Positions 1 through 64,000 of a stretch of DNA of 64,000 nt are shown here, piece by piece. The stretch covers positions 4,441,888 through 4,505,887 of the forward strand of contig NC_092676.1 of NCBI RefSeq assembly GCF_964355755.1, in the 5' to 3' direction. The notes beneath the pieces are model-generated. The model was not told the DNA's origin, did no database searches, and saw only the letters and a list, made by a program, of their open reading frames with translations. Every line of letters begins with the position of its first letter. Within the stretch, counting starts at the first letter, position 1. The translations under genes and the position numbers were made by a program. The stretch is from Antedon mediterranea. Taxonomy: Eukaryota > Animalia > Echinodermata.

Positions 1-713
1 TTAAACAATGATAATGGATTAAAATTATTCTATAATTTCACAATTTGTGATCTTATAAAAAATATCTTAAAAATCACTAGTTTTTAGTTCATCCACCATG
101 AATGAACTTTATTTTTGTGTAATACATAATAATTTTAAAAATAATATTAATTGTAAAATTTCACAATATAAATATCATTATAATGATTGTTATACTAAAT
201 AATTAGTATTTGTTTATGTAGTGATTTTGTTTTATGAGAATAAAAATTATTAAAATATAAATATATATTTTATATTTTGACATCAGTAAAATGTTGATAC
301 AATACAATGCATGTATTGTAGGATCAATTGTAATAATGGATTAATAATATGTATCAACATTTTTAAAATGTATCCACCATGATTGAACTATTTATTTTTG
401 TAAGATATAACAAAAATGAATATTTATTACATATTAGATAATACATTTATTATATGGTTGCTAACAAACAATTTGAATTTATTGTAGACATTTTATTTTA
501 ATGAAATAAGTTATTAAAATATACATTTTTACTTTAACATAGTATATTTTGACATCCTAAAGTACATACAATAGAGTACATGCAGTATAACTACTGTATA
601 ATGTACAGGAATGTAGACATTTCAACATTTGAGGTGACAGAAAAATTAAAATAATTTTAAAACAGCTTGGATATTGTGATTTACTTATACTGTGCATTCT
701 TTTTACTTTTAAG

Positions 714-785
714 GTCTTTGTACAGTAACCAAATAAGTACATTACCAGCCAATGTATTTGCTGATTTGACAGCATTGAAAACACT
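714..785 (+). CDS. LRR exon A1 SLYSNQISTLPANVFADLTALKTL
   Basis: ttttaag|72 nt|gtaagt, phase 2-2. Confidence 0.85.
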
Positions 786-3700
786 GTAAGTGTATTGCTT
801 ATGTTTGCTTACTTTTACCAATTTGGTTTTAATTTAGAAAATTAAATGAAAAATTGTTTTACATTGTTGGTTAAACAATGATAATGGATTAATATTATTA
901 TATAATTTCACAATTTGTGATCTTATAAAAAAACTTTAAAAATCAATCGTTTTTTGCTCATCCAACATTAACAAACTTTATTTTTTTGAATAATATTATA
1001 ATAATTCAAAATACATTTTTATTGTAACTGTCACAATATAAATATTATTATAACAAATGTTACTAAATAATTAGTATTTGTTTATTTAGTGATTTTGTTT
1101 TAAGAGAATAAAAATTATTAAAATATAAATATATATTTTATATTTTGACATTAAAATATTGATACAATACAGTGCATGTATTGTAGGTTCGATTGTAATA
1201 AGGGAGTAATAATATGTACTTTATGATTTCATGATTATTTATAGTAAAAATAATTTTAAAGTGAACATTTTAAAAATGTATTCACCATGATTGAACTATT
1301 TATTTTTGTAAGATCTAACAATTGAAACTGAATCTGTATTACATATAGATAACACATTTATTATATGGTTGCTATCAAACAATTTGAATTTGTTGTAGAC
1401 ATTATATTTTAATAAAATATACATTAAAATATACATTTTTATTTTAACATAATATATTTTGACATAACTAAAGTACATACAATAGAGTACATGCAGTATA
1501 ACTACTGTATAATGTACAGGAATGTAGACATTTCAACATTTGAGGTGACAGAAAAACTAAAATAATTTAAAAACAGCTTGGATATTGTGATTTACTTATA
1601 CTGTGCATTTTTTTACTTTTAAGGTCTTTGTACGATAACCAAATAAGTACATTACAAGCCAATGCATTTGCTGGTTTGACAGCATTGGAAACACTGTAAG
1701 TGTATTGCTTATGTTTAATTTTTTGCTCATCCAACATTAACAAATTTTATTTTTTTGAATAATATGTAATTCAAAATAAATTTTTATTGTAACTGTCACA
1801 AATATAAATATTATTATAACTAATGTTACTAAATAATTAGTATTTGTTTATGTAGTGATTTTGTTTTATGAGAATAAAAATCATCAAAATATAAATATAT
1901 ATTATATAGTTTTACATCATTAAAATGTTGATACAATACATTGCATGTATTGTAGGATAAATTGTAATAATGGACTAATAATATGTACCTTATGATTCCA
2001 TGATTATTTACAATAAAACCAATTTAAAAATCAACAATTTTTTAATTTTTTCACCATGATTGAACTATTTATTTTTGTAAGACAAAACAATTGAAACTGA
2101 ATCTGTATTACATATTAGATAATACATTAATTATATGGTTGTTAACAAACAATTTGAATTTGTTGTAGACATTTTATTTTTAATAAAATAAGTTATTAAA
2201 AATATATCACATTTTTACTTTAACATAGTATATTTTGACATAACTAAAGTACATACAATATAGTACATGCAATATAACTACTGTATAATGTACAGGAATG
2301 TAGACATTTCAACATTTGAGGTGACAGAAACACTAAAATAATTTAAGAACAGCTTTGATATTGTGATTTACTTATACTGTGCATTCTTTTTACTTTTAAG
2401 GTATTTGAGCAGTAACCAAATAAGTACATTACCAGCCAATGCATTTGCTGGTTTGGCAGCATTGAGAACACTGTAAGTGTATTGCTTATGTTTGCTTACT
2501 TTTACCAATTTGGTTTTAATTTAGAAATTAAATTACAAATTAATTTGAATTGTTGATTAAGCAATTATAATGGATTAATATTATTACATAATTGCACAAT
2601 TTGTGATCGTATAAAAAATATCTTTATAAATCACAAGTTTTTAGTTCATCCACCATGAAAGAACTTTATTTTTGTGTAATACATAATAATTCTGAATTAA
2701 TCTTAAATGTAAAATTTCACAATATAAATATCATTATAATGATTGTTATACTAATTAATTAGTATTTGTTTATGTAGTGATTTTGTTTTATGATAATAAA
2801 AATTATTAAAATATAAATATATATTTTATATTTTGACATCATTAAAATATTGATACAATACAATGTATGTATTGTAGGATCAATTGTAATAATTGACTAA
2901 TAATATGTACCTTATGATTTCATGATTATTCACAGTAAAACAAATTTAAAAAGCAACAATTTTGTAATTTATCCACCATGATTGAATTATTTATTTTTGT
3001 AAGATCTAACAATTGAAACTGAATCTGAATTACATATAGATAATACATTTATTATATGGTTGCTATCAAACAATTTGAATTTGTTGACATTTTGTTTTCA
3101 GAAAATATGTTAATCAAATAAATTTACAACATTTTTATTTTAACATAGTATATGTTGACATAACTAAAGTACATACAATAGAGTACATGCAGTATAAATA
3201 CTGTATAATGTACAGAAATGTAGACATTTCAACATTTGAGGTGACAGAAAAACTAAAATAATTTAAAAACAGCTTGGATATTGTGATTTACTAATACTGT
3301 GCATTCCTTTTACTTTTAAGGGAATTGGACAATAACCAAATAAGTACATTACCAGCCAATGCATTTGCTGGTTTGACAGCATTGGAAACACTGTAAGTAT
3401 ATTGCTTATGTTTGCTTACTTTTATCAATTTGATTTTAATTTAGAAATTAAATTATAAATTATTTTAAATTGTTGGTTAAGCAATTATAATGGATTAATA
3501 TTATTACATAATTTCACAATTTGTGATTGTATAAAAAAATATCTTTATAAATCACTAGTTTTTAGTTCATCCACCATGAATGAACTTTATTTTTGTGTAA
3601 TACATAATAATTAAAAATTAATCTTAAATGTAAAATTTCACAATATAAATACCATTATGATTGTTATACTAAATAATTAGTACATGTTTATGTAGTGATT

Positions 3701-6700
3701 CTGTTTATGAAAATAAAAATTATTAAAATATAAATGTATATTTTATATTTTGACATTATTAAAATATTGATACAATACAATGCATGCATAGTAGGATCAA
3801 TTGTAATAATGGACTAATAATATGTACCTTATGATTTCATGATTATTCACAGTAAAACAAATTTAAAAAGCAACAATTTTGTAATTTATCCACCATGATT
3901 GAATTATTTATTTTTGTAAGATCTAACAATTGAAACTGAATCTGAATTACATATAGATAATACATTTATTATATGGTTGCTATCAAACAATTTGAATTTG
4001 TTGACATTTTGTTTTCAGAAAATATGTTAATCAAATAAATTTACAACATTTTTATTTTAACATAGTATATTTTGACATAACTAAAGTACATACAATAGAG
4101 TACATGCAGTATAACTACTGTATAATGTACAGGAATGTAGACATTTCAACATTTGAGGTGACAGAAAAACTAAAATAATTCAAAAACAGCTTGGATATTG
4201 TGATTTACTTATACTGTGCATTCTTTTTACTTTTAAGGTATTTGTACAATAACCAAATAAGTACATTACAAGCCAATGCATTTGCTGGTTTGGCAGCATT
4301 GGAAACACTGTAAGTGTATTGCTTATGTTTGCTTACTTTTAACAATTTGGTTTTAATTTAAAAATTAAATTACAAATCATTTTGAATTGTTGATTAAGCA
4401 ATTATAATTGATTAATATTATTACATAATTGCACAATTTGTGATCGTATAAAAAATATCTTTATAAATCACAAGTTTTTAGTTCATCCACCATGAATGAA
4501 CTTTATTTTTGTGTAATACATAATAATTCTGAATTAATCTTAAATGTAAAATTTCACAATATAAATATCATTATAATGATTGTTATACTAATTAATTAGT
4601 ATTTGTTTATGTAGTGATTTTGTTTTATGATAATAAAAATTATTAAAATATAAATATATATTTTATATTTTTACATCATTAAAATGTTGATACAATACAT
4701 TGCATGTATTGTAGGATCAATTGTAATAATGGACTAATAATATGTACCTTATGATTCCATGATTATTTACAGTAAAAACCAATTTTAAAATCAACATTTT
4801 TAAAATGTATCCACCATGATTGAACTATTTATTTTTGTAAGATCTAACAATTGAAACTGAATCTGAATTACATATAGATAATACATTTATTATATGGTTG
4901 CTATCAAACAATTTGAATTTGTTGACATTTTGTTTTCAGAAAATATGTTAATCAAATAAATTTACAACATTTTTATTTTAACATAGTATATTTTGACATA
5001 ACTAAAGTACATACAATAGAGTACATGCAGTATAACTACTGTATAATGTACAGGAATGCAGACATTTCAACATTTGAGGTGACAGAAAAACCAAAATAAT
5101 TTAAAAACAGCTTGGATATTGTGATTTACTTATACTGTGCATTCTTTTTACTTTTAAGGGATTTGGAAAATAACCAAATAAGTACATTACCAGCCAATGT
5201 ATTTGCTGGTTTGACAGCATTGGAATACCTGTAAGTGTATTGCTTATGTTTGCTTACTTTTAACAATTTGGTTTTAATTTCGAAATTAAATTACAAATTA
5301 TTTTACATTGTTGGTTAAGAAATGATAATGGATTAATATTATTATATAATTTCACAATTTGTGATCTTATAAAAAAACTTAAAAAAGCAATAGTTTTTTG
5401 CTCATCCAACATGAACAAACTTTATTTTTTGGAATAATATTATAATAATTCAAAATACATTTTTATTGTAAATGTCACAAATATAAATATTATTATAACA
5501 AATGTTAATAAATAATTAGTATTTGTTTATTTAGTGATTTTGTTTTATGATAATAAAAATTAATAAAATATAAATATATATTTTGACATTAAATATTGAT
5601 ACAATACAGTGCATGTATTGTAGGATCAATTGTAATAATGGACTAATAATATGTACTTTATGATTTCATGATTATTTACAGTAAAACCAATTTTAAAATC
5701 AACATTTTTAAAATGTATCCACCATGATTGAACTATTTATTTTTTTTAAGATATAACAATTGATACTGAATCTGTATTACATATTAGATAATACATTTAC
5801 TATATTGTTGCTAACAAACAATTGAATTTTGTGTAGAAAATTTGTTTTAAGAAAATAAGTTATTTGAATATATTTACCACATTTGTATTTTAACATAGTA
5901 TATTTTGACATCACTAAAGTACATACAATAGAGTACATGCAGTATAACTACTGTATAATGTACAGGAATGTAGACATTTCAACATTTGAGGAGACAGAAA
6001 AACTAAAATAATTTAAAAACAGCTTGGATATTGTGATTTACTTATACTGTGCATTCTTTTTACTTTTAAGGTTTTTGTACAGTAACCAAATAAGTACATT
6101 ACAAGCCAATGCATTTGCTGGTTTGACAGCATTGGAAACACTGTAAGTGTATTGCTTATGTTTGCTTACTTTTACAATTTGGTTTTAATTTAGAAATTAA
6201 ATATAAAATTATTTTACATTGTTGGTTAAGCAATGATAATGGATTATTATTGTTACATAATTGTACACTTTGTGACCTAATAAAAATATCTTTATAAATC
6301 ACTAGTTTTTAGTTCATCCACCATGAATGAACTTTATTTTGGTGTAATACATAATAATTCAAAATTAATATTAATTGTAAAATTGTACAATATAAATATC
6401 ATTATAATGATTGTTATGCTAAATAATTAGTATTTATGTTGTAATTTTGTCTTATTAGAAAAAAATCATCAAAATATAAATACATATTATATATTTTGAC
6501 ATTATTAAAATATTGATACAAACAGTGCTTGCATTAATATTATTATATAATTTCACAATTTGTGATCTTGTAAAACATATCTTAAAAATCACTAGTTTTT
6601 TGCTCATCCACCATGAATGAACTTTTTATAATATATAATTCAAAAATAATTGTTATTGTAAATATCACAATATAAATATCATTATAACAAATGTTACTAA

Positions 6701-9700
6701 ATAATTAATATTTGTTTATGTTGTAAGTTTGTCTTAATTATAAGAAAAAAATTATTGAAATATAAATATATATTGTGATCATCTTTTAAAAAATCAATAG
6801 TTTTTAGTTCATCCACCGTGAATGAACTTTATTTTTGTGTAATACATAATAATTAAAAATAATAATAATAATTCAAAATCAATCACTATATAAATATCAT
6901 TATAATAATTACTATTTGTTTATGTAGTGATTTTGTTTTATGAGAATAAAAATTATTAAATATATATTTTATATTTTGACATTAAAATGTTGATACAATA
7001 CAGTGCATGTATTGTAGGTTCAATTGTAAAAATGGAGTAATAATATGTACTTTATGATTCAATGATTATTTACAGTAAAACCAATTTAAAAAGCAACAAT
7101 TTTGTAATGTATCCACCATGATTGAACTATTTATTTGTGTAAGATACTAAATATGTATTACATATTAGATAATACATTTATTGCATGGTTGCTAACAAAC
7201 AATTTGAATTTGGTGTAAAAATTTTCTTTTGTGAAAATAAGTAATTTAAATATATTTACCACATTTTTATTTTAACATAGTATATTTTGACATCACTAAA
7301 GTACATACAATAGAGTACATGCAGTATAACTACTGTATAATGTACAGGAATGTAGACATTTCAACATTTGAGGTGACAGAAAAAATAAATAATTTAAAAA
7401 CAGCTTGGATATTGTAATTTACTTATACTGTGCATTCCTTTTACTTTTAAGGTCTTTGAGCTATAACCAAATAAGTACATTACAAGCCAATGCATTTGCT
7501 GGTTTGACAGCATTGAAAAGACTGTAAGTGTATTGCTTATGTTTGCTTACTTTTACCTATTTTGTTTTATTTTGTTTTTTAAATTACGGATTCGGATTCT
7601 AACATTATTGACCTTTGACCTTGATTTATCATATCTTAGCAACCACTAATCTGAGAGACACACAATATGGCTCAAACTGTTCAGAAACTACATATTTATA
7701 TTTAGTCTAATGGCATGTTTTTGCAAAAAATGGCCGATTCTAACATTATTGACCTTTGAACTTTGCACTACATAAAATCGCATAACTTTGAAAATATTGT
7801 ACATATGAAATTATTTTTAGTGTCAAATTATTCAAAACATACATGTTTCTATAGAGTCCAATGACACATTATGTCCAATAATGACCTATTGTATGGTTAT
7901 TAACATTTGAACTATATTTGAAAAGGATTTTTAAACCCGGAATCTTCTTCATGTAGGCATTCATTAGAACATGTGATTTGGCACTACTTGTTTAGAATAT
8001 GGTGGTAATTTAAAGTGCATGTAACCAGTTGATTTAAATTAAATTTAAAAACTGAAAATATTCACTTAAAAAAAAATATTAGACTATATATACATACATT
8101 ATAGGTTTGGATTATTAATACATTTTTAATTAGGTCTTACATCTTACTCAGGAGAAAGTTGGTGTTGACACTATTAACAGAGCCAACAAAAATGTATTTT
8201 TTTTTATGATATATTGTACATACTTTAAATAGGCCATGCCATTTTGCAGGTTTATTAACGTTTTTTTCAAGTTAGTAATTTATTTTATTATCAAATTAAA
8301 TTGCCATTAAATGGCATATTCAAAAAAACAAATTTCTAAAGATTATTTAGTTTATATTTTGCTAAGGATAGCATCACTCTTGAGGGCATTCTTTTAGGTT
8401 GAAACATAGTCTTATTAAGAAGGCATTTTCTACTAATAGACGCATTGTTGACAACTGGAATTTTAAAAGATCGATATTAATGCAACATATTTAGTTTAGT
8501 TTAATTAATTGGCTATCGAGACTCATAATTAGGCTGACCACCACTTGCAATATTTTCGCCGTATACAGTAAAAACCTCAGTTTCTTATGGAATTTATTTA
8601 TTTATTTCAATAACCATATACAGTACGACTACTAGTGGTGTATAGTTTTTAAGCTTTTATAACTTGTTTTTGTACTTTTTTTACGTGAATGTATTGTGTA
8701 TGTACTATGTTTCTATGTGGTTTAATTTTTACCATTTTTTAACCATCAATTTTAATGCTTTTAATATAAATATCTTGTAATTCAGCTTCAGCTGCGAAGA
8801 CGATAAGAAATAAAACTTGTAGGCAGTTTGTGGATGAATGCAATAGTTTATGCTTATAAATTTAATGTACCATGGCCTACTTTAAACTAAACATAATAAG
8901 TCAACGTTGCAACTCTTACATTTTAGAGTGCCAAATCACATGTTCTAATGGATGTCCACATGAAGAAGATTCCGGGTTTAAAGACTTTTCAAATATAGTT
9001 CAAATGTTAATAACCATACAATAGGCCATTATTGGACATAATGTGTCATTGGACTCTATAGAAACATGTATGTTCTGAACAATTTGACACTAAAAATAAT
9101 TTCATATGTACAATATTTTCAAAGTTATGCGATTTTATGTAGTGCAAAGTTCAAAGGTCAATAATGTTAGAATCGGCCATTTTTTGCAAAAACGTGCCAT
9201 TAGACTAAATATAAATATGTAGTTTTTGAACAGTTTGAGCCATATTGTGTGTCTCTCAGATTAGTGGTTGCTAAGATATGATAAATCAAGGTCAAAGGTC
9301 AATAATGTTAGAATCCGCCATTTTTTGCAAAAACATGCCATTAGACTGGATATAAATGTGTAGTTTCTGAACAATTTAAGCCCTAATTTGTATTTCTCCA
9401 ATTAGGGGTTGCTGAGATATGATAAATCAAGGTCAAAGGTCAATAATGTTAGAAATAGCACTTCCATTCATTTTTGGACAAACTTTTTCATTAAAGTGAA
9501 TATAAAAACATATATTCTAACGATTTTGACACCATAATTAAGTATCTGTGACTAGCGGTTTCCAAGATACAGAGTACGTTATTAAAAATGGCGGCCATTT
9601 TTAATTATGCAAATTAGGCTACTTCCTTTTGTCGAAAAATGTCCTAACGTTGATAAATGTGTTCAGTAGGGTCTAAAGAACACATTTCATCAAAAAAACC

Positions 9701-12700
9701 TTTTCTTGCAATTTGTGTGAGTTAAAAGTCTAAATCCCATTGACTAGTATTGTAGGATCAATTGTATTAATGGACTAATAATATGTACTTTATGATTTCA
9801 TGATTATTTACAGTAAAACCAATTTTAAAATCAACATTTTTAAAATGTATCCACCATGATTGAACTATTTATTTTTTAAATAACAATTTAAACTGAATCT
9901 GTATTATATATTAAATAATACATTTATTTTATGGTTGCTATGTGTAATACATAATAATTCTGAATTAATCTTAAATGTAAAATTTCACAATATAAATATC
10001 ATTATAATGATTGTTATACTAAATAATTACTATTTGTTTATGTAGTGATTTTGTTTTATGAGAATTAAAATTATTAAAATATAAATATATATTTTATATT
10101 TTGACATTAAAATATTGATACAATACAGTGCATGTATTGTAGGTTCAATTGTAATAATGGAGTAATAATATGTACTTTATGATTTCATGATTATTTACAG
10201 TAAAACACATTTTAAAATAAACATTTTTTTAATTTATCCACCATGATTGAACTATTTATTTTTTTAAGATATAACAATTGAACTGAATCTGTATTACATA
10301 TAGATAATACATTTATTATATGGTTGCTATCAAACAATTTTTAATTTGTTGTAGAAATTTTATTTTAACAAAATAAGTTATTAAAATATATCACATTTTT
10401 ATTTTAACTTAGTATATTTTGACATCACTAAAGTACATACAATAGAGTACATGCAGTATAACTACTGTATAATGTACAGGAATGTAGACATTTCAACATT
10501 TGAGGTGACAGAAAAAATAAAATAATTTAAAAACAGCTTGGATATTATAATTTACTTATACTGTGCATTCTTTTTACTTTTAAGGTATTTGAGATATAAC
10601 CAAATAAGTACATTACAAGCCAATGTATTTGCTGGTTTGACAGCATTGAAATACCTGTAAGTATATTGCTTATGTTTGCTTACTTTTACCAATTTGGTTT
10701 TAAATTAGAAATTAAATGAAAAATTGTTTACATTGTTGGTTAAACAATGATAATGGATTAATATTATTATATAATTTCACAATTTGTGATCTTATAAAAA
10801 AACTTTAAAAATCAATAGTTTTTTTGCTCATCCAACATTAACAAACTTTATTTTTTTGAATAATATTATAATAATTCAAAATACATTTTTATTGTAACTG
10901 TCACAATATAATTATTATTATAACAAATGTTACTAAATAATTAGTATTTGTTTATTTAGTGATTTTGTTTTATGAGAATAAAAATGATTGAAATATAAAT
11001 ATATATTTTATATTTTGACATTAAAATATTGATACAATACAGTGCATGTATTGTAGGTTTGATTGTAATAAGGGAGTAATAATATGTACTTTATGATTTC
11101 ATGATTATTTATAGTAAAAATAATTTTAAAGTGAACATTTTAAAAAGTATTCACCATGATTGAACTATTTATTTTTGTAAGATCTAACAATTGAAACTGA
11201 ATCTGTATTACATATAGATAATACATTTATTATGGTTGCTATCAAACAATTTTTAATTTGTTGTAGAAATTTTATTTTAATAAAATATACATTAAAATAT
11301 ATCACATTTGTATTTTAACATAGTATATTTTGACATAACTAAAGTACATACAATAGAGTACATGCAGTATAACTACTGTATAATGTACAGGAATGTAGAC
11401 ATTTCAACATTTGAGGTGACAGAAAAAATAAAATAATTTAAAAACAGCTTGGATATTGTAATTTACTTATACTGTGCATTCTTTTTACTTTTAAGGTATT
11501 TGAGATATAACCAAATAAGTACATTACAAGCCAATGTATTTGCTGGTTTGACAGCATTGGAAACACTATAAGTGTATTGCTTATGTTTGCTTACTTTTAC
11601 CAATTTGGTTTTAATTTAGAAAATTAAATGAAAAATTGTTTTACATTGTTGGTTAAACAATGATAATGGATTAATATTATTATATAATTTCACAATTTGT
11701 GATCTTATAAAAAAACTTTAAAAATCAATAGTTTTTTTGCTCATCCAACATTAACAAACTTTATTTTTTTGAATAATATTATAATAATTCAAAATACATT
11801 TTTATTGTAACTGTCACAATATAAATATTATTATAACAAATGTTACTAAATAATAAATATTTGTTTATTTAGTGATTTTGTTTTATGATAATAAAAATTA
11901 ATAAAATATAAATATATATTTAGGCATTAAATATTGATACAATACAGTGCATGTATTGTAGGATCAATTGTATTAATGGACTAATAATATGTACTTTATG
12001 ATTTCATGATTATTTACAGTAAAACCAATTTTAAAATCAACATTTTTAAAATGTATCCACCATGATTGAACTATTTATTTTTTTTAATAACAATTTAAAC
12101 TGAATCTGTATTATATATTAAATAATACATTTATTTTATGGTTGCTATGTGTAATACATAATAATTCTGAATTAATCTTAAATGTAAAATTTCACAATAT
12201 AAATATCATTATAATGATTGTTATACTAAATAATTATTATTTGTTTATGTAGTGATTTTGTTTTATGAGAATAAAAATTATTAAAATATAAATATATATT
12301 TTATATTTTGACATTAAAATATTGATACAATACAATGTATGTATTGTAGGATCAATTGTAATAATGGACTAATAATATGTACCTTATGATTTCATGATTA
12401 TTCACAGTAAAACACATTTAAAAAGCAACAGTTTTTTTAATTTATCCCCCATGATTGAACTATTTATTTTTGTAAGATATAACAATAGAAACTGAATCTG
12501 TATTATATATTAGATAATACATTTATTATATGGTTGCTAACAAATAATTTTTAATTTGTTGTAGAAATTTTATTTAAACAAAATAAGTTATTAAAATATA
12601 TCACATTTTTATTTTAACATAGTATATTTTGCCATCACTAAAGTACATACAATAGAGTACATGCAGTATAACTACTGTATAATGTACAGGAATATAGACA

Positions 12701-15700
12701 TTTCAACATTTGAGGTGACAGAAAAACTAAAATAATTTAAAAACAGCTTGGATATTGTGATTTACTTATACTGTGCATTCTTTTTACTTTTAAGGTATTT
12801 GAGCGATAACCAAATAAGTACATTACCAGCCAATACATTTGCTGGTTTGACAGCATTGGAAACACTGTAAGTATATGGCTTATGTTTGCTTACTTTTACC
12901 AATTTGGTTTTAATTTAGAAATTAAATTACAAATTAATTTGAATTGTTGATTAAGCAATTATAATGGATTAATATTATTACATAATTGCACAATTTGTGA
13001 TCTTATAAAAAAACTTTAAAAATCAATAGTTTTTTGCTCATCCAACATTAACAAACTTTATTTTTTTGAATAATATTATAATAATTCAAAATACATTTTT
13101 ATTGTAACTGTCACAATATAAATATTATTATAACAAATGTTACTAAATAATTAGTATTTGTTTATTTAGTGATTTTGTTTTAAGAGAATAAAAATTATTG
13201 AAATATAAATATATATATTTTATATTTTGACATTAAAATATTGATACAATACAGTGCATGTATTGTAGGTTCGATTGTAGTAAGGGAGTAATAATATGTA
13301 CTTTATGATTTCATGATTATTTATAGTAAAAATTAATTTTAAAGTGAACATTTTAAAAATGTATTCACCATGATTGAACTATTTATTTTTGTAAGATCTA
13401 ACAATTGAAACTGAATCTGTATTACATATTGGATAACACATTTATTATATATTAAAAATTATTGAAATATAAATATATATTTTATATTTTGACATTTGAC
13501 ATTGCTTATGTTTGCTTACTTTTACCAATTTGGTTTTAATTTAGAAAATTAAAATTATTAAAATATAAATATATATTTTATATTTTGACATTAAAATATT
13601 GATACAATACAGTGCATGTATTGTAGGTTCAATTGTAATAATGGAGTAATAATATGTACTTTATGATTTCATGATTATTTACAGTAAAACACATTTTAAA
13701 ATAAACATTTTTTAAATTTATCCACCATGATTGAACTATTTATTTTTTTAAGATATAACAATTGAACTTTTACCAATTTGGTTTTAATTTAGAAATTAAA
13801 TTACAAATTATTTTACATTGTTGGTTAAGAAATGATAATGGATTAATATTATTATATAATTTCACAATTTGTGATCTTATAAAAAAACTTTAAAAATCAA
13901 TAGTTTTTTGCTCATCCAACATTAACAAACTTTATTTTTTTGAATATTATTATAATAATTCAAAATACATTTTTATTGTAACTGTCACAATATAAATATT
14001 ATTATAACAAATGTTACTAAATAATAAATATTTGTTTATTTAGTGATTTTGTTTATGATAATAAAAATTAATAAAATATAAATATATATTTTGGCATTAA
14101 ATATTGATACAATACAGTGCATGTATTATAGGATCAATTGTATTAATGGACTAATAATATGTACTTTATGATTTCATGATTATTTACAGTAAAACCAATT
14201 TTAAAATCAACATTTTTAAAATGTATCCACCATGATTGAACTATTTATTTTTTTAAATAACAATTTAAACTGAATTTGTATTATATATTAAATAATACAT
14301 TTATTTTATGGTTGCTATGTGTACATAATAATTCTGAATTAATCTTAAATGTAAAATCTTGTAAAAACAAACTTAAAAAATCACTAGTTTTTTGCTCATC
14401 CACCATGAATGAACTTTTTATAATATATAATATTTCAAAATGATTTTTTATTGTAAATGTCACAATATAAATATATTTTTGTAAATCAACAATTTCAGCC
14501 GTCGGGCTGCATGTTTTTTATTATATAAACCTGAATAAATAAATAAATAAATTATTACAATTGATCCTACAATACATGCACTGTATTGTATAAACATTTT
14601 AATGTCAAAATATAAAATATGTAATCACTACATAACAAATACTAATTATTTAGTATAACAATCATTATAATGATATTTATTGTGAAATTTTACAATTAAT
14701 ATTATTTTTTAAATTATTATGTATTACACAAAAATAAATTTCATTCATGGTGGATGAATTAAAAACTAGTGATTTATAAAGATATTTTTTATAAGATCAC
14801 AAAGTGTAAAATTATGTAAATTATGTAATAATATTAATCCATTATCATTATACAGTAGTTGTACTGCATGTACTCTATTGTATGTACTAGTGATGTCACA
14901 ATATACTATGGGTAAATAAAAATGTATATTTTAATAACTTATTTTATCAAAATAAAATGTCTACAAAAAATTAAAATGTTTTGATAGCAACCATATAATA
15001 AATGTATTATCTATATGTAATACAGATTCAGTTTCAATTGCTATGTCTTACAAAAATAAATAGTTCAATCATGGTGGATAAATTTAAAAATTGTTGATTT
15101 TAAAATTAGTTTTACTGTAAATAATCATGAAATCATAAGGTACATATTATTAGTCCATTATTACAATTGATCCTACAATGCATTCAATGTATTGTATCAA
15201 TATTTTAATGACAAAATATAAAATATATATTTATATTTTAATAATTTTTATTCTCATAAAAAAATCACTACATAAACAAAATACTAATTATTTAGTAACA
15301 TTTGTTATAATGGTATATATATATATGGAAACACAAATATTTAAAAAAATACCAAAATTTATACAAAACATTAACAAATTTGAAAAATTCAGTTAAAAAA
15401 ATAAAATTATGTTAAAAAAATTACATAATTTATATACAAAATGCTTAGGCCTATATATGTAAATATTTATAACATAGCCATCTTCAGCGTGATCAGTTTA
15501 GGTACTGTTTAAATTAAGGATTCTACTTATAGTAAGGGCAGGCGAGGTCTTAAGACGGTTAGTTCTACAAACAGGTATATTATTTAGGGGTTTATGGACT
15601 AATATGTACTTTATGATTCCATGATTATTTACAGTAATTTTGTTTTAAGAAAATAAGAAATAAGTTATGAAAATATATTTACAAAAGTATATTTTGACAT

Positions 15701-18700
15701 ACTAAAGTATACAATAGATGGATTACATGCAGTATAATGTATTTACTGTACTACAATTTAGTTTTAATTAAAAAGGTAAATTAGAAATTGTATTTTACAT
15801 TGTAGAACAATTATAACAAAATATTTAATATATAATTTCATTATTATGTGATTATAAGTTTAAACCCCACCTCACCAAAAAAATATATATACGTATATGA
15901 TAATATAATAAATCAAAAATCAATTTTCAGTTGTTATTTTACAATATAAATATCATTTAAAATATCATTTAAGTTAATTTTACTACATTTAGTATTTGTT
16001 TACTTTAACCAGAAAACAAACAAAAATAAAAGGGATAAATGCAGTGTTTATATTACCGTAAATCAATAGATAATTGGCAACTAACTTAATTAACTGCTCA
16101 AGCCCAAACTAGCAAGACCATAATGTGCATTATTTATCATATACTGTGTATTTTTTATCATTTAAGGTGGTTGGATGGTAACCAAATACACACATTGGAA
16201 GCCTATGCATTTGCCGGTTTGGAATCATTGACAGGACTGTGAGTATTTTTTCAATACTTTTACAAACTTCCTTATTTTTAAAAGAAACTTTATTTATTGT
16301 TGTTTTAGAACTATTCTAATTATTCCAGTTGATACTGTATGTCATGGACTGCCATAACATTGCTGTAACACAGATGTCAATCAACAATAGATTTACAACT
16401 AACAATATGACTTATATTATTATTTATAATTACTAGAGGGTGAGCTCGCTTCGCTCGCTCCCCCTCTAGGAAGTGTAGACGATGGTTCTCGGAATGATAA
16501 TGTTCTCCTTATACATTTTCTGTCGGTTACCATTATTGAAAATGCTTGACATTCGTAAAACTAAACTACTTTGTTTCACAGTGTTTTAGATGATTAATAA
16601 CATTTTAAAGTATAGTTTTTATTGTTTGGTAGGGCCCTTTGGGGAGGCGGAGGTCATTTGAGGGAGGTGCTTATTCGAGGGATATATGTTAAATTTTTTA
16701 GTTCTAATAATATGGTAACATTTATAATCAAATGAAATCCTCTCATAGATATGAAAAGTGGTAAAAAAGAATAACAAATGCTTGGTAAATTGCAGATAAC
16801 AGTGCGGTGAATTCTACTACAAATAGTATAATTGTGTTATTATAAATATGTGGATGGACGTTTATTAGATAGTTGGGTTGTGGGGGGGGGGGGGGGTTAT
16901 TATTCAAAGTGATGTTTTATTGGAGAGGCGTTTATTCAAATGAATACCATCCTAATAATTATTAATACATTATTTAATTTAATCATCTTTTGAAACTAAC
17001 TGCCGTGACAGAGTGGGCCCAAGAAAGAAGACATTACGGCTTGCAACATGGGCAGACATCTCGGTCCTAACGGGACACAGGAAGATAGCCTACAGTTATT
17101 CCTGCAAGCTTACTCAATAAAACTCAGGGATTTCACTCGAAAAATGTCTTATCAAATCTCCCTATGTAATTTTATAATACTATTCCCCACAATATATTCT
17201 GATTCTTTATGGCGTATATTTAATTTGATCTTTATTAATTTGCAGTATAATTCTTATTATTTAACTACTGTACCTTCACACACGTGTGGTATGTTTTAAA
17301 ATAAACAAAAAACTGAAATGGCTATGATTAATGGCCAATTTTTTTTTCGTCTTCCAAAGGGACACTGTATTGATTGATGGAAAGTGCCTGTTTCCAGTCA
17401 CCTTTAGGGTCAAATCTATTATTTTAACTGCTCCCTTGTGTATAAAAGAGAGAAAATATTTGAAACTAAGGTGAACTTATCTTAAACCCGGAAATTACTT
17501 TGACCGGAAGAATTGAAATTGAGAGGAAAATCCAATGTTGAAATCATAAATGTTGTTAAAAAACTCTTTATAATATCTTCCTAAGATATAAATATGGAAC
17601 AATAGCGTCGGCGTGCACACTAACGTTATCAAATCAACGTTTCGCGGTACATCTCGGATAGATAAGGTAGGTATCCAAGGCGGAGATTTGTACCGAAGTT
17701 TTTGCATTGTGCTCGCCTATGTCAGAATTAACCATAATTTATATATAGATTATACATGACAATTTGATTCAAAGATCTCTTTTGTCACAATTTTTTTTTT
17801 TAATAAAAATTTACCATATTACTGTATCAAACAACTTAGATACTGATCGAATTTCTGTTATGAGTATACAGTACTTGCCTTTACGACGCCTGAGGGAATA
17901 GACACTTGTGGAACAGAGATTGGAATGTTCCATTCATCGCAAATCAATACATTTGTATAAACGTATATTAAATCTATCAAAATAATACTTTTTAAAGAAA
18001 ATCGGCCTGTCTTCAACATTATGATGCTGTACTCGAGCTGTTCAGCCGGTTTTCAGCGATTAAAAACAATTATCGTAGGAGGAGATAGGAAAATGCGAAG
18101 CATCCTCGCATTATTGTATGCGGGTATTTTTCAAGATGGACATGCATTAGACAGTGTATACCACGATCGGAAAACACCCCTATTTGGAGCAAATCGTTGA
18201 ACCTAAATTCGTTTTAATCGTCAATAACTAATTATCGAACTCAATTTAATTAGTAAACAGGGTTACATCAGGTGGTTAAAATCAGTATCGAAAGTACGAA
18301 CCAACTTTATATACCATCGAGTAAACATTCTAGAAATAACGCGCGATTTACCGAATAAATCAAATATCAATTTTCAGTTGTTATTTTACAATATAAATAT
18401 CATTTAAAATATCATTTAAGTTAATTTTACTACATTTAGTATTTGTTTACTTTAACCAGAAAACAAACAAAAATAAAAGGGATAAATGCAGTGTTTATAT
18501 TACCGTAAATGAATAGATAATTGGCAACTAACTTAATTAACTGCTCAAGCCCAAACTAGCAAGACCATAATGTGCATTATTTATCATATACTGTGTATTT
18601 TTTATCATTTAAGGTGGTTTGATTTTAACCAAATACACACATTGGAAGCCTATGCATTTGCCGGTTTGGAATCATTGACAGGACTGTGAGTATTTTTTCA

Positions 18701-21700
18701 ATACTTTTACAAACTTCCTTATTTTTAAAAGAAACTTTATTTATTGTTGTTTTAGAACTATTCTAATTATTCCAGTTGATACTGTATGTCATGGACTGCC
18801 ATAACATTGCTGTAACACAGATGTCAATCAACAATAGATTTACAACTAACAATATGACTTATATTATTATTTATAATTACTAGAGGGTGAGCTCGCTTCG
18901 CTCGCTCCCCCTCTAGGAAGTGTAGACGATGGTTCTCGGAATGATAATGTTCTCCTTATACATTTTCTGTCGGTTACCATTATTGAAAATGCTTGACATT
19001 CGTAAAACTAAACTACTTTGTTTCACAGTGTTTTAGATGATTAATAACATTTTAAAGTATAGTTTTTATTGTTTGGTAGGGCCCTTTGGGGAGGCGGAGG
19101 TCATTTGAGGGAGGTGCTTATTCGAGGGATATATGTTAAATTTTTTAGTTCTAATAATATGGTAACATTTATAATCAAATGAAATCCTCTCATAGATATG
19201 AAAAGTGGTAAAAAAGAATAACAAATGCTTGGTAAATTGCAGATAACAGTGCGGTGAATTCTACTACAAATAGTATAATTGTGTTATTATAAATATGTGG
19301 ATGGACGTTTATTAGATAGTTGGGTTGTGGGGGGGGGGGGGGGTTATTATTCAAAGTGATGTTTTATTGGAGAGGCGTTTATTCAAATGAATACCATCCT
19401 AATAATTATTAATACATTATTTAATTTAATCATCTTTTGAAACTAACTGCCGTGACAGAGTGGGCCCAAGAAAGAAGACATTACGGCTTGCAACATGGGC
19501 AGACATCTCGGTCCTAACGGGACACAGGAAGATAGCCTACAGTTATTCCTGCAAGCTTACTCAATAAAACTCAGGGATTTCACTCGAAAAATGTCTTATC
19601 AAATCTCCCTATGTAATTTTATAATACTATTCCCCACAATATATTCTGATTCTTTATGGCGTATATTTAATTTGATCTTTATTAATTTGCAGTATAATTC
19701 TTATTATTTAACTACTGTACCTTCACACACGTGTGGTATGTTTTAAAATAAACAAAAAACTGAAATGGCTATGATTAATGGCCAATTTTTTTTTCGTCTT
19801 CCAAAGGGACACTGTATTGATTGATGGAAAGTGCCTGTTTCCAGTCACCTTTAGGGTCAAATCTATTATTTTAACTGCTCCCTTGTGTATAAAAGAGAGA
19901 AAATATTTGAAACTAAGGTGAACTTATCTTAAACCCGGAAATTACTTTGACCGGAAGAATTGAAATTGAGAGGAAAATCCAGTGTTGAAATCATAAATGT
20001 TGTTAAAAAACTCTTTATAATATCTTCCTAAGATATAAATATGGAACAATAGCGTCGGCGTGCACACTAACGTTATCAAATCAACGTTTCGCGGTACATC
20101 TCGGATAGATAAGGTAGGTATCCAAGGCGGAGATTTGTACCGAAGTTTTTGCATTGTGCTCGCCTATGTCAGAATTAACCATAATTTATATATAGATTAT
20201 ACATGACAATTTGATTCAAAGATCTCTTTTGTCACAATTTTTTTTTTTAATAAAAATTTACCATATTACTGTATCAAACAACTTAGATACTGATCGAATT
20301 TCTGTTATGAGTATACAGTACTTGCCTTTACGACGCCTGAGGGAATAGACACTTGTGGAACAGAGATTGGAATGTTCCATTCATCGCAAATCAATACATT
20401 TGTATAAACGTATATTAAATCTATCAAAATAATACTTTTTAAAGAAAATCGGCCTGTCTTCAACATTATGATGCTGTACTCGAGCTGTTCAGCCGGTTTT
20501 CAGCGATTAAAAACAATTATCGTAGGAGGAGATAGGAAAATGCGAAGCATCCTCGCATTATTGTATGCGGGTATTTTTCAAGATGGACATGCATTAGACA
20601 GTGTATACCACGATCGGAAAACACCCCTATTTGGAGCAAATCGTTGAACCTAAATTCGTTTTAATCGTCAATAACTAATTATCGAACTCAATTTAATTAG
20701 TAAACAGGGTTACATCAGGTGGTTAAAATCAGTATCGAAAGTACGAACCAACTTTATATACCATCGAGTAAACATTCTAGAAATAACGCGCGATTTACCG
20801 AATAAATCAAATATCAATTTTCAGTTGTTATTTTACAATATAAATATCATTTAAAATATCATTTAAGTTAATTTTACTACATTTAGTATTTGTTTACTTT
20901 AACCAGAAAACAAACAAAAATAAAAGGGATAAATGCAGTGTTTATATTACCGTAAATGAATAGATAATTGGCAACTAACTTAATTAACTGCTCAAGCCCA
21001 AACTAGCAAGACCATAATGTGCATTATTTATCATATACTGTGTATTTTTTATCATTTAAGGTGGTTTGATTTTAACCAAATACACACATTGGAAGCCTAT
21101 GCATTTGCCGGTTTGGAATCATTGACAGAACTGTGAGTATTTTTTCAATACTTTTACAAACTTCCTTATTTTTAAAAGAAACTTTATTTATTGTTGTTTT
21201 AGAACTATTCTAATTATTCCAGTTGATACTGTATGTCATGGACTGCCCTAATATTGCTGTAAACACCGGTGCCAATCAATTTACATCTAACAACATGAAT
21301 TATATTATTGTTTATATACATGAAAATTTGATTCAAAGATCTCTTTTGTCAATACATTTTTTTAATGAAAATTTACAATCATACTGTATCAAACAACTGA
21401 GTGTTGACAAAGTGCGAGGCAGCGAGGCACGCGAGGCAAGCGCGGCATGCGCGGCATGCCAAATATTTGTGCGAGGCATCATTTTATCATTTCCAAAAGT
21501 GCGAGGCATATAGTTTACAATTTCAAAAAGGTGCGAGGCATATCTTAACGTGCTATTATGCTATATTATAGGCCTAATAATCAATCGATACAAGCGTATC
21601 TAAATAGATTCGTGTATACACTCATCATGTTGTTTATTTTTATGTAACGATTGTTTTTTCATTCAAGTCATATCGTGTCAAATTTTACTTTTACAAAAGT

Positions 21701-24700
21701 GCCCAAACTACGGTTAAAAAATCTGAACGACAGTCTTCAACTTTCGATAAACAATAATTGTTATAGCAACACACTCATCAAATGACTGCAATGTTTGTTG
21801 GCATTTCGAGCGTGTTCACTCACATGTCTCTCGAACATAGCAGAGTGAAAATAATATTTTGTCACACCCCTGCGCCTAGATCCGGTAGACCCGAGAGATG
21901 GAAAATCCCTCTTTACTATTTAGCAGGTAGCGGAATGATTCAGCCCTCAGCTCAGAGGATTGTGGTGCATTCCCCTCCTATAGCACGTGGTTTCAGCAGC
22001 AACGCACAGACTTCTCTCTGAGCGGCGTGCCAAAGACATTTTTGACATTCCATTCTCTAGGAACAACACGTGTACCTCTCTCGCAAATAAGGTGAACAGC
22101 GATTGCCAGGACAAGTTCAATAACTGGCGGTGAATAAAAGGTAACTGATATGCCGATCCAATAACATGCCGCAAAGAAAAAAATTGCGACAGAATTCTGG
22201 AGCGCGTGTGAAAAAAGACTTACGTCCGACAATTGTAATACTAGGCCTAAAATTAAACTTTAGCTAATATGCTTAGCCCTAACCTAGATAAAGGCCTATG
22301 TAGAAAATAATTTAATCAATTTTGATAAAATAATAATTGGTGTAATATTTAATAATGATACACTATTCCTGTTTTAGTAAGCTAGGTATATTACGAACGA
22401 TTTTTATTTATTGTTGTCCATGTACGTACTAATAAACCTGGCGCTAGTTTCCTTCGCTTGTATGTTTACTCCAAATTTGATAACTAACTTTATCGTGTGA
22501 ATACCACACCTTAGAAGTATACCTCATGAGTACTTTAATGAAAGAATCACATAAAAAGTAACAAATAAATCCTTAAATTAATGATTTTACAGGCGTGTTT
22601 CTCGCACACTGTTCGCGAATTTCACTTATTCAATGTTCAATATTTTTGTTTCTATGGAGCGCCAAAAGAGCAACGATAATAGAGGACTAAAACTCAGTGG
22701 AATGCGTCAATTTCTCATGCATTTATTGGTGAAAAACACGTTTTATTTCAATATATTTGTTAATTTGTCAATAAAAATGTTGTAATATGTTACTGCTGAT
22801 ACTGTTCTGTTTTCAAAGAATAATAATCGATCCTAAATCAACATCACTACCTAGTCTAGACCTAGGACATCCTACTAAGGATATTATGATGAATTTTTCT
22901 ATTTTATTCTTTAAAAGGTTAACGAAACCGTGTACATTATCAACAGTAACATTTTTCCTTACTGACAGTGACAAAATCTATTGAAATTGTACTTGATTTT
23001 CACCAAATAATGCGTTAAATATAAATGGATTCCACAGAGTTTTTAGCCCTCTAATTAATTTTGCTCTTTTGGCGTTCCATAGAAACCAAAATATTGAACA
23101 TTGAGTGTGCGAAATGCGAGAAAAACAACGTCTGTAAAATCACCAATTTAATGGATTTATTGTTACTTTTATGTGATTTTTCTTCATTAAAGTATGCCTA
23201 ATTCTAAGCTGTGGTATTCAGGATAAAGCCTTGGTTAAATTACAAGGCAGGTGCAAAAGGAAACTAGCCTAGCGGGCCTAGGCCTAGGCTACTTCAATTT
23301 CGGTGATTTCCTGCCTTGCAATTTTGAGAAATGATAAAATGATGCCTCGCATTTTTTGATGATGGTAAAACGATGCCTCGCATAAATTTCTGACTTGCCT
23401 CGCATGCCTTCTCTGCCTCGCGTGCCTCGCTGCCTCGCACTTTGTTACTACCCATGTAGAATTAACAATAACAGATTATTATGTATTACCATAAAACTTT
23501 GAAAAGAAGGCAATTGCTGTTTCTTTTTTTAGGATTCTTGGGTGGGCTTCTTTTCGAGATATGCTAAATTTTGAGATGGGCTTCTTTTTGTGCCGCTCCT
23601 TTAGGAGCAGCACAAAACAAGCAAGCATTAGGAAACAGTTACCATTCGGAAGGTTACAGTTTGCTAGGGCTGAAAAAATGGGTATTTGGAAACCCGGACT
23701 GGGAATGGGGGCAAACCCCAAAATTATATAAGATGTAGAACTCAATAGATAATTTGCAATTAACTTACCTGCTCAAGCCTAAGCTAGCAAGACTATTATA
23801 CTGTGCATTATTCATCATTTAAGGCGGTTGGAAGGTAACCAAATACACACATTGGAAGCCAATGCATTTTCTGGTTTGGAATCATTGACAGAACTGTGAG
23901 TATTTTTTCAATACTTTTACAAACTTTATAATTTCAAAATAAACTATATTTATTGTTATTCCAGTTGATACTGTATGTCATGGACTTCCCTAACATTGCT
24001 GTAACACTGGTGCCAATCAATTGAATAACAACATGAATTATATTATTGTTTATATACATGATTATTTTATTCAAAGATCTCTTTTGTCACAATTTTTTTT
24101 TTAATGAAAATAATTACTATAACACTGTATCAAACAACTTGGATACTGTATATGATTTTCCTTACTGTGAATTATTTTTCTGTATCAAACAACTATGATA
24201 TAATAATTTTACTTACTATGAAATATGTTATTTTGAAGGCGTTTGAATGGTCACAAAATCAGTACATTGCCAGCTAATGCATTTAACGGTTCGACAGCAT
24301 TGACAACACTGTAAGTGTTTTCTCTTGTTCATAATACTTTTATATCTTTAATTAAAGTAGAACCCCTATAATAATGGGACACCTTCAAAACCAAAATTGT
24401 CCCCATAATAGAGGTTTTTGTTGAAATAAAAACCAAACTTTTAGCAACCAATGTTTCACCAATAAAAATTGTCAAGCCTGAGAAAGTATGTTTATTTTTA
24501 CGATATTCATTTTTGATCTTGTAGCAAAATTTAATTCAATTTTAATGAGAGATGATGAACCTGGAGCAAGTGGTTGACTGAAATTAAACTTTTGTACTAT
24601 AAAAGGGTTACTATCTATATATAAATTTACGTAAGGGCAAAATTCGGTAAATCACGCGTTATTTCTAGAATGTTTACTCGATGGTATATAAAGTTGGTTA

Positions 24701-27700
24701 GAATCTCGGTACTGATTTTAACCACCTGATGTAACCCTGTTTACTAATTAAATTGAGTTAGATAATTAGTTATTGACAATTAAAACGAATTTAGGTTCAA
24801 CGATTTGCCCCAAATAGGGGTGTTTTTCGATCGTGGTATACACTGTCTAATGGATGTCCGTCTTGAAAAATACCCACAGACAATAATACGAGGATGCTTC
24901 GCATTTTCCTATCTCCTCCTACGATAATTGTTTTTAATGGCTGAAAACCGGTTGAACAGCTCGAGTACAGCATCATAATGTTGAAGACAGGCCGCTTTTC
25001 TTTAAAAAATACTATTTTGATAGATTTAATATACGTTTATACAAATGTATTGATTTGCGATGAATGGAACATTCCAATCTCTGTTCCACAAGTGTCTATT
25101 CCCTCAGGCGTCGTAAAGGCAAGTACTGTATACTCATAACAGAAATTTGATCCATTTTTTTTTTAATCTGTGCTGCAGAGGTTGGATATAATTTTTTTTA
25201 AACGGATAATGAGCTAGCGTTTTCAGTCGCAGTATATTATGTAAACATCTTTATTATTGCATTTAAACCACCCACATCATCACCCCTCCCTCACTGGCAT
25301 GAGTAGCGTTGTAAAGCCAGTACAGGATAGGCCTACGGTGCATCACATCCCCTAAACGCAGAACAACTTTGGTGGGTAGGGTAAGAACCAACTTAAGTAT
25401 GAATTGGCTCTAAGAAACAATTGAAAACCATTAGGCCTACTAATTAAGTTGAGTTAGATAATTTAATATTTATTGACGATTAAATCGAATTTATGATTTT
25501 CCTCGAATAGAGGTGGTTTTCACAAATTGTTTTACATTATATAAACATACACGTCGTAGTGATGTATCGTTACATGTACTGTAGCCTACTATTTCAATCG
25601 ACTAGGACGGTGATAGTTTCAACAAAGTATTACATAGCAATGTTTTACTGTGTTTAGTGGTATATTATTTGTAAAACATGAAAACAATTAATATTTCGTT
25701 ACTAAATGGATAAAGAATATATTTAATATATTTAAAAATTTTTCCTCTTTGCACCCATCCTCTTCCCCATCCCTCACCCCTAATGTTACATACAAAACAC
25801 AAATTAAGTTTGTTTAAATTTGACTTAAACAATTGGTCTCATTTTGTGACAAGTTTCTCTTTCGGAAGTAATTCTCAGGGTGCTAATTTTAGTTGAGTAC
25901 ATAAATCATTGTCTATTTATTCGTTCCTGTAAACGACATGTATTATTGTAGGCCTACGTACATTTGAAATCGCCAGTTTTTTAACGCTGCAATTATTATG
26001 TATTCGAAAACCATCTGTGGGCACGACCTAGATGGTACGCGAGCGAAGCGAGCGTACCATCTAGTTCTTTAAAATAAAGGAAAACATTTACAGGGTGGGC
26101 AAGTAAAACTTAAAAGTGGTTTTGGTGGCCAACAAAGCTGTAATTTAAAACTTTACCCTGAAAAAAAGTGTATTACATGCAATTTTCTAACAGTATGCAA
26201 AATTTAAGGTAATTATCCTGTAGAGTAATTGTTTTAACTTCATTTAATAATTAATATTTTATTACATTTAAAACTCCCAACAATGGGCTTTGATGTCCCC
26301 TTAGGGAGGCCTTTCAGGAGGTCCAGTTTGCCTTAATATAATTTTCACTATTTCTATCAAAATTATATTCACTGTCATAAAGTATTTAGGTAACCGGTTA
26401 CAGGATTATAAATACATGAAAAACCCCCTTATTGTCAAAAATTGTCTGTGCCTATGAGAGGTGTGTTTGTGTTTGGATGTTCTGCTAAATAGGAAAATCA
26501 TTCAGGCCTTAATACTAGTGTCTTAATGGGATGTGTCTGGGAGTTTCATACCATACTGTATTACCATATTAGAAAAAAAAAAAAAACCTTCTTGAATATT
26601 GTAATTTTATTATACTGTTCATTCTTTTTCCTTTGTAGGAGATTGGATGGTAACCAAATCAGTACATTGCCAGCCCTTGCATTTAATGGTTTGTCAGCTT
26701 TGACAGACCTGTGAGTTTTTTCATACCATTTGCTACATTTACTAATTTATGTTATTTCACTAAATTAAATCATGCATGTAGAATTAACAATAACAGATTA
26801 TTATGTATTACCATAAAACCTTGAAAAGAAGGCAATTGCTGCCTCTTTTTTTAGGATTCTTGGGTGGGCTTCTATTTGAGATATGCTAAATTTTGAGATG
26901 GGCTTTTTTTTTGTGCCGCTCCTTTAGAAGCAGCACAAAACAAGCAAGCATTAGGAAACAGTTACCATTCGGAAGGTTATAGTTTGCTAGGACTGAAAAA
27001 TGGGTATTTGACAACTCGGGCTGGGAATGGGGGAAAACTCCAAAATTATATCAGATGTAGAACTCAATAGATAATTTGCAATTAACTTACCTGGACTATT
27101 ATACTGTGCATTATTTATTATTTAAGGCGGTTGGAAGGTAACCAAATACATACATTGGAAGCCTATGCATTTGCCAGTTTGGAATCATTTGGAGTTTCTT
27201 TTCAATACTCCCTAATTGTGGTTATTATAATTATTCCAGTTAATATGATATATGATAATCAGTCCTAAGTCACGGAAGATTCAATTGAAACCTATTATTA
27301 CAATTAATGGCAAAAGCTTAGAATATTTTGACTCAACCACATATCTTGGTCATGTTATCTCCTTGGATTTATGTGATGATTTCGATATAAAGCGGCAATA
27401 CAGATCTTTGTGTATCCGAGCCAACTCATTGGTAAGAAAATTTAGCATGTGTTCTGTCGATGTGAAATGTGTTGTATTTAGAACATATTGTGTAAATATG
27501 TATTGTGCTACATAATGGTGCAACTATAATCAAGGTACCTTGCGATCTCTTAAGGTATGCTACAATAATAGGTTAAGAATGTTGCTACAAAGGCCTCGAC
27601 ATTGCAGTGCCAGCCTTATGTTTACGGACATTAGAATTCCTTCTTTCTATGAATTGTTTAGAAAATCAATATATGGCCTGATGGGTAGACTAAATGCATG

Positions 27701-63911: not shown

Positions 63912-64000
63912 CTGTTTCATTTCATTAATTTTATGCATCCAAGAGAGAAATATCATTTTTTTTTTTAAAGGAATAAAAGAAATTAAAAGATGAAAAGGCT

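Follow-up and report, generated by a model that had tools for sequence, protein, structure and literature searches.

Diversification of five concave-strand codons in homogenised one-repeat exons of a probable GRL101-like receptor gene from the feather star Antedon mediterranea

A 64,000-nucleotide stretch of the Antedon mediterranea genome (contig NC_092676.1, positions 4,441,888 to 4,505,887; hereafter the window, in whose own numbering positions are given) contains an array of leucine-rich repeat (LRR) exons, the class A cassettes, in which variation is concentrated on the five codons that specify the predicted contact residues of the LRR strand. The feature is real and strong, and represents a diversifying repeat receptor of a known mode on an unexpected scaffold, that of a GPCR (G-protein-coupled receptor). 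The view developed here, which we hold to be probable, is that unequal exchange keeps the cassettes of an LRR-GPCR alike and shuffles them, and that selection meanwhile diversifies their binding face against a changing non-self ligand.

The class A array (714..12866; plus strand, as are the exons and intron pieces below unless stated) comprises 11 exons of 72 nucleotides (nt), each encoding a single LRR and bounded by phase-2 introns; the exons start at 714, 1624, 2401, 3321, 4238, 5159, 6071, 7452, 10585, 11496 and 12795. The positions of these cassettes, and the residues at both exon ends, had been listed in an earlier, sequence-only reading of the window and are all correct. As the window starts within a class A-type intron, the array likely continues upstream. 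The acceptor TTTAAG precedes all 11 exons and the donor GTAAGT follows ten; the remaining cassette, with a dead donor (11496..11573), reads ATAAGT, which has no GT, and this exon is likely skipped or mis-spliced, with the frame surviving if it is skipped. The phase-2 intron splits the mid-strand Leu codon between CT and G, and every LxxLxLxxN strand therefore spans an intron, x2 and x3 being provided by one exon and x5, x7 and x8 by the next. In the first cassette the 5' half of a strand (x5, L, x7 and x8; exon nt 2-13 of each cassette) occupies 715..726, while 778..785 covers the 3' half of the strand that follows, with x2, x3 and two bases from the split Leu, the complete strand being assembled across the intron.

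Across the 11 cassettes the five x codons displayed a mean pairwise diversity of 0.377, with 13 of 15 sites variable, compared with 0.031 (5/57 sites variable) in the remainder of the exon. The near-invariant core motif described previously is in accord with this low framework diversity, except that the motif omits a G to D change in exon 714; the five variable framework sites are all non-synonymous (P/Q, A/V/T, G/D and T/A). When the units were aligned from intron through exon to intron, x-codon diversity also exceeded that of the flanking introns, which was 0.027 in the 150 bases before the acceptor (18/150 variable; 564..713 is an example of this strongly homogenised segment) and 0.084 over the 768 alignable columns (182 variable), the downstream alignment covering nine of the 11 units, with 1624 (deletion) and 7452 (insertion) excluded. 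The view that framework and introns alike are homogenised is thus accurate near the exons, for ~150 nt upstream and 50 nt downstream, but not in the intron interior, where diversity is 0.06-0.15 and indels are numerous. Exon nt 2-13, at 0.320, surpassed every 12-column intron window (746 tested, maximum 0.269). Only two of 33,649 possible sets of five codons reach the diversity sum of the x codons; with the sets limited to the 15 non-core codons this falls to one in 3,003, and the x codons rank first. The proposed enrichment of Y, S, D, E, N and R at the variable positions is evident in 43 of the 55 residues.

These contrasts bear on the possibility of a largely neutral array, a tandem duplication in decay whose surface codons drift unconstrained. 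The dead donor, a pseudo-exon, intron debris, intron insertions and a core Leu to Phe change in two downstream exons (described below) are compatible with decay. Drift, however, cannot surpass intron diversity 4.5-fold, other surface codons are fixed, all 29 exons of the gene are free of stops and frameshifts, and the pattern is repeated in a paralogue on a different framework; neutral decay is thus a very unlikely explanation.

Differences at the x codons are predominantly non-synonymous, with pN (per non-synonymous site) of 0.46 against pS (per synonymous site) of 0.08. The LxxLxLxxN block contains 6.4 synonymous sites, at which 8.8 synonymous changes would be expected at the non-synonymous rate, as under a regional hotspot; of the 17 or more changes in the block no more than one can be synonymous, a deficit with P = 0.0015 (Poisson) or 0.006 (binomial). 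The Leu and Asn codons that are interleaved with the variable codons are invariant, as is the third base of x8. Most x-codon variants connect via observed codons in single-base steps, the exceptions being TAC/AGC at x7 and ACA/TAC at x3. The changes had been described as multi-nucleotide and non-synonymous; the second term is apt, while the first applies to these two codon pairs, which lack intermediates. The same two pairs, together with the grouping of variable sites at both exon ends and a higher short-range incompatibility in exons (7/11 pairs) than in introns (2/11), might be taken to indicate targeted mutation, through a deaminase-type process or an exon-end hotspot, an alternative that the sequence-only reading had left standing. 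Such a process is difficult to reconcile with the invariance of the interleaved Leu and Asn codons and the x8 third base, with the near fixity of splice-adjacent intron bases, or with a mutation spectrum that includes no C>T and one G>A in 17 changes. Because synonymous sites between variable codons are fixed and there is no C>T bias, diversifying selection is favoured over targeted mutation, which we regard as highly improbable. These data support the view that x-codon variation represents stepwise amino-acid change retained by selection, and not a mutated window.

In LRR proteins the five x positions form the concave β-strand/β-turn face, which is often the ligand site (PMC3138743). A profile of the 11 class A exons matches typical 24-residue LRRs, the best match being a lamprey variable lymphocyte receptor (VLR; PDB 6bxa, E = 3.6e-5). 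AlphaFold models of two relatives, P0002 and P0300, display a short strand on x3-L-x5 in each regular repeat, and the predicted local distance difference test score (pLDDT) is about 90 in the class A repeats of P0300. By analogy with other LRRs, we infer that the x positions form the ligand-binding surface. The earlier proposal of diversifying selection on concave-strand codons is supported by x-codon diversity above every neutral yardstick, by the synonymous deficit and by the strand position in P0300. When the LRR region of P0002 served as a query, the matches were generic LRR proteins.

The class A units are mosaics. Within the 72 nt of the exon, 56 of 153 pairs of variable sites are incompatible with a single tree (Rm, the minimum number of recombination events, = 7), and parsimony takes 36 steps where the bound is 22. 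The distances that intron segments and exon segments yield are only weakly correlated (Spearman -0.23 to 0.39) and hardly track array position. Even the adjacent codons x7 and x8 show TAC/AGC and AGT/GAT in all four combinations. Part of this mosaic could stem from recurrent mutation under selection; frequent short-tract exchange is the simpler reading. The three class B exons that follow (16167, 18614 and 21061, within 16167..21132) reside in near-identical 2447-bp units; units 1 and 2 differ at 6/2447 bases, three of these in exon nt 7-12, and the middle exon matches the third in its 5' half and the first in its 3' half, a mosaic that would fit a crossover within the exon core. In exons 18614 and 21061 the strand core Leu is replaced by Phe (WFDF), and paralogue models also have WF at this position. 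Repeat number and order vary between paralogue models, which are automatic and partial. Two properties expected of repeat arrays under concerted evolution with diversifying selection are evident here: the repeats are homogenised and mosaic, and counting tests show amino-acid changes in excess at the contact positions. The copy number of the class B units could be wrong, as they are >99% identical over 2.4 kb, and it might be argued that the array as a whole is an artefact of collapsed or mis-ordered repeats in the assembly. The class A units, however, are 83-97% identical in long alignments and have private indels, and variation at x7, x8 and four framework sites recurs in contigs from independent runs, which makes an artefact barely credible.

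Between the class A array and the last exon lie 17 LRR-bearing exons on the same strand. In addition to the class B exons, these comprise LRR exons at 23824, 24239, 26639, 30521, 31050, 31565, 31945, 32692, 35286, 35707 and 36679 and a 75-nt LRR exon at 35965 (all within 23824..36750), and an irregular repeat encoded by two exons (28958-28990, 33 nt, and 29979-30056, 78 nt) that is conserved in the paralogue models P0297 and P0300, in which the same exon types as those of the 23824..36750 region are present. The irregular repeat is of low confidence in the P0300 fold, and may be an inserted loop or a solenoid hinge. A truncated LRR pseudo-exon (27127..27190) retains an acceptor but no donor. 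The last exon (37057..38080) encodes a Cys-Cys hinge, a seven-transmembrane (7TM) domain and the stop codon, and matches Pfam 7tm_1 (E = 2.7e-31, profile 1-260), as expected for the rhodopsin class to which LRR-containing GPCRs (LGRs) belong. Read together, and with the dead-donor cassette counted, the 29 exons form a single open frame of 1002 codons that contains 27 repeats. The LGR arrangement, an LRR ectodomain and hinge in frame with a 7TM domain, is found in this reading frame and, for the last five LRR exons, in the public model of this gene, as well as in public paralogue models. With seven relatives as tblastn queries, neither a further 7TM nor any other domain was detected among the LRR exons. 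In P0300 and P0297 (98.8% identical in the 7TM domain) class A cassettes are followed by downstream exons of the same types, joined to the 7TM domain. The 5' end of the gene lies beyond the window; the relatives P0213 and P0003 appear by eye to have a hydrophobic start and a Cys cap. The class A cassettes are therefore likely to belong to the ectodomain of a GRL101-like rhodopsin-class GPCR.

Fifteen public runs, none recorded as RNA, contain part of the 3' region of the gene, and four (X9, X8, X1 and X6) were mapped on one cassette only, 4238. In X9 and X8 it is the exon on which contigs accumulate, and each run has a single contig with an exon-end-to-exon-start joint; in X1 and X6 exon and intron are covered and no exon-exon joint is present. 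In one X9 contig a W-L exon follows a class A exon that departs from 4238 only by Asn at x3, matching the A-to-B order of the window, and an X8 loose end encodes D-L-R at x5-x7 following a spliced exon end. Among the ten exon variants listed from the contigs, five affect x7/x8, one is synonymous and four fall on framework codons also variable in the window. The contigs, which are not assignable to the window locus, fit serial splicing and a larger repertoire.

At its 3' border the class A array gives way to exon-less, scrambled class A intron pieces (12950..14480) and an inverted, exon-less class A intron copy (14543..15322, minus strand). Within the latter, 14846-15322 is 81-91% complementary to 11/11 class A introns, the complementarity stopping 110-111 nt short of each class A acceptor. 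The inverted copy could give rise to long double-stranded pre-mRNA or provide a docking site. Folding of the conserved 150 nt upstream of three acceptors gave z-scores of -1.4, -2.6 and -1.5, such that RNA structure in this segment is unconvincing. It is conceivable that the cassettes are selected by alternative splicing, either Dscam-like or through variable skipping, and possibly guided by the inverted copy, which could pair with the class A introns in the pre-mRNA; a single gene would then yield many receptors. All exons are frame-symmetric, with 25 of the 29 being 72 nt, and the X9 contig joins to the W-L exon a class A exon that is unlike 12795. This odd joint, however, may reflect an allele or a paralogue, and intron debris lying closer than the class A introns would compete for the inverted copy. 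A choose-one mode is disfavoured by head-to-tail joints in two of the four runs and by contigs with two consecutive LRR exons, none of them assignable to the window locus, and the cassettes are in series in paralogue models. Splicing alone would also leave the codon pattern unexplained without selection. Cassette choice by splicing is, on balance, improbable.

The best sequence relatives are named GRL101. In A. mediterranea nine records on three large contigs are 93-100% identical in the 7TM domain, and 28 records on eight contigs, some of them fragments or possible isoforms, were chosen at ≥60% identity. In a quick tree of 90 rows, which was built without the closest paralogues, has Shimodaira-Hasegawa-like approximate likelihood ratio (SH-aLRT) support only, and resolves the clade level but not deeper forks, the window sequence falls in an eight-row crinoid clade (SH-aLRT 99). 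A 25-row clade (SH-aLRT 99) that includes Lymnaea, Limulus and Ptychodera excludes it, and the window sequence thus lies outside GRL101 proper. GRL101 proper has about six LRRs, in contrast to the 27 repeats in the window. The window contains no LDLa domain, and a simple motif finds none in the 28 relatives, many of whose models are without a 5' end. The gene is a member of a young multigene feather-star clade that is separate from canonical GRL101. The strand halves of P0300 and P0297, which include DLGS, NLYS, DLRG, NLRW and YLNT, are distinct from those of the window, in which none of six is present. A more distant relative, P0306 (64% 7TM identity), has ten repeats on a distinct, uniform framework; entropy is 1.88 at the five x positions versus 0.25 elsewhere on the surface, and these positions rank first of 3,003 choices. 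Because P0306 repeats the x-position pattern on its own framework, the diversifying process evidently acted on at least two frameworks in the family. Repetitive LRR arrays are also present in the LRR-GPCRs P0057, P0060 and P0052, one of which is from a brittle star; P0057 and P0060 vary more at the x positions than elsewhere, and the pattern may extend beyond crinoids.

Individual components of this system have precedents. Lamprey VLRs share the 24-residue LRR type and the variation of the concave face. In VLRs, which have no 7TM domain, cassettes are built somatically into a germline gene that is incomplete, whereas the Antedon cassettes are spliceable germline exons in frame ahead of a 7TM domain. 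Canonical GRL101, a type C2 LGR, resembles the Antedon gene in its LRRs, short Cys hinge and rhodopsin-class 7TM domain, but has six LRRs and twelve LDLa modules (PMC4079206, PMC8286064), as opposed to at least 27 repeats in a separate multigene clade, and is reportedly single-copy in crinoids (PMC8286064). Length by itself is no novelty, as an LGR from a sponge has 26 repeats (PMC4079206). By descent, the gene is best classified as an LGR related to GRL101 that lies outside the GRL101 clade and its repeat number, and it is not a VLR. A close parallel in exon organisation and selection is provided by the ROCO LRR-GTPases of the brown alga Ectocarpus, which display 72-nt one-LRR exons, inactivated exons in introns, shuffling and positive selection on the concave face (Zambounis et al. 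2012, PMC3341825); these carry a GTPase domain, whereas the Antedon gene encodes an animal cell-surface 7TM receptor whose introns are mutual copies. Tetrahymena LRR exon arrays also have one repeat per exon, phase-2 introns, ectopic recombination and variable repeat number, but the exons are 90 bp, there is no GPCR, and the available text of the paper contains neither 'positive selection' nor 'concave' (PMC6564038). Concerted evolution in which a small number of contact residues in each repeat are under diversifying selection is described for the WD40 repeats of the Podospora HNWD genes het-d and het-e (PMC1805685) and for PRDM9 zinc fingers (PMC2779102), proteins with other folds, while in Antedon each repeat is its own exon and the contact strand is split by an intron. 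In the snail Biomphalaria the SudRes2 cluster of GRL101-like genes is similarly expanded, structurally variable and proposed to function in host-parasite recognition; it differs in its C-type lectin and LDLa modules, and the portion of the article available describes no cassette array or codon-level hypervariability (PMC12297450). An octopus GPCR study found LRRs in 5/22 group 3 sequences and, in the sections available, no selected sites (PMC6408891), and the main text of a brittle-star genome paper mentions neither GRL101 nor LGR (PMC11310086). A literature search that covered few subscription journals and no supplements recovered no account of this crinoid family, nor of any GPCR that carries a hypervariable array of one-repeat exons.

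We propose that unequal crossing-over and gene conversion would alter cassette number and spread or erase variants, an exchange that is possible because all exons are phase 2-2 and interchangeable. Exchange within an intron would join old strand halves (x2 x3 with x5 x7 x8) into new strands, while exchange within an exon core would transfer whole strands. Point mutations at the x codons would be retained by selection and recombined, even between adjacent codons, and the cassettes would be spliced mostly in series. The five concave-strand positions are predicted to set which non-self ligand the receptor binds, and a rapidly changing foreign ligand, whether microbe, parasite or conspecific non-self, would on binding elicit G-protein signalling. 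The diversification is assumed to be inherited, not somatic. It is also possible, though rather unlikely, that the same evolutionary mechanism serves a non-immune ligand such as a chemical cue, a gamete or a conspecific signal. LGRs usually bind hormones, the P0002 model resembles LGR4, TSHR and LHCGR, and starfish sensory tentacles show enrichment of a GRL101-like gene (PMC6267866). In contrast, near-identical cassettes, Tyr/Ser/Asp-rich strands and fast copy turnover resemble non-self receptors (PMC3341825, PMC1805685), and a GRL101-like cluster is located within a snail parasite-resistance region (PMC12297450). Neither a non-immune ligand nor splicing diversity is exclusive of the evolutionary mechanism proposed. 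A more far-reaching proposal, that a hormone-type GPCR of an invertebrate deuterostome has given rise to a family of variable LRR immune or allorecognition receptors convergent with lamprey VLRs, in which germline half-strand recombination would be combined with cassette skipping within the animal, under the guidance of the inverted intron copy, or with somatic exchange, is doubtful.

Several observations weigh against recognition of non-self by a diversifying LRR-GPCR. The framework of the class A array has pN of 0.042 and pS of 0, and the array alone shows no purifying selection there. The evidence for selection consists of counting tests that treat sites as independent. Among older exon pairs, the x codons contain 0/3 differences between 24239 and 35707, and 2/5 between 26639 and 32692. 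The fold models, examined as the sequence-only reading had suggested, provide strand positions, with the P0300 strand on x3-L-x5, and not side-chain orientation. The public model of this gene, P0206, which is 100% identical to the window in the 7TM domain, carries just the final five of the 28 exons with LRRs, and the array is not spanned by any contig, such that the link from cassettes to 7TM domain derives from frame, order and paralogues. The exon-exon joints are one contig each, from runs not recorded as RNA, and may derive from paralogues. Finally, the dead donor, truncated exon and intron debris suggest partial decay.

Several other elements are present in the window. Intron 8 contains a ~2-kb insertion (7590-9750) with inverted arms of ~390 bp at 97% identity, which resembles a non-autonomous DNA element. 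A second 2-kb element, with TGCGAGGCA-type inverted ends, is duplicated at 21400-23450 and 32840-34900 within a 3-kb duplication that carries two LRR exons. A 512-bp repeat is located in introns of the LRR-GPCR gene at 17845-18356, 20292-20803 and 24642-25152, in both orientations and at 96% identity. On the minus strand, 52500-64000 is occupied by a large neighbour gene with a 1296-aa open frame that is Ser-rich and contains short tandem repeats; four pieces of it gave no Pfam match.

LGRs are known as conserved hormone receptors. Here, a sister lineage constitutes a multigene family with interchangeable exons and a binding face that evolves like that of a non-self receptor. Automatic annotation misses most of this gene, the public model containing 5/28 of the LRR-bearing exons in the window. 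The array provides a clear natural case in which selection keeps five codons apart despite homogenising recombination. To our knowledge the immune repertoire of crinoids has been little studied, and the family represents a testable candidate for variable recognition in echinoderms, one that would be coupled directly to G-protein signalling.

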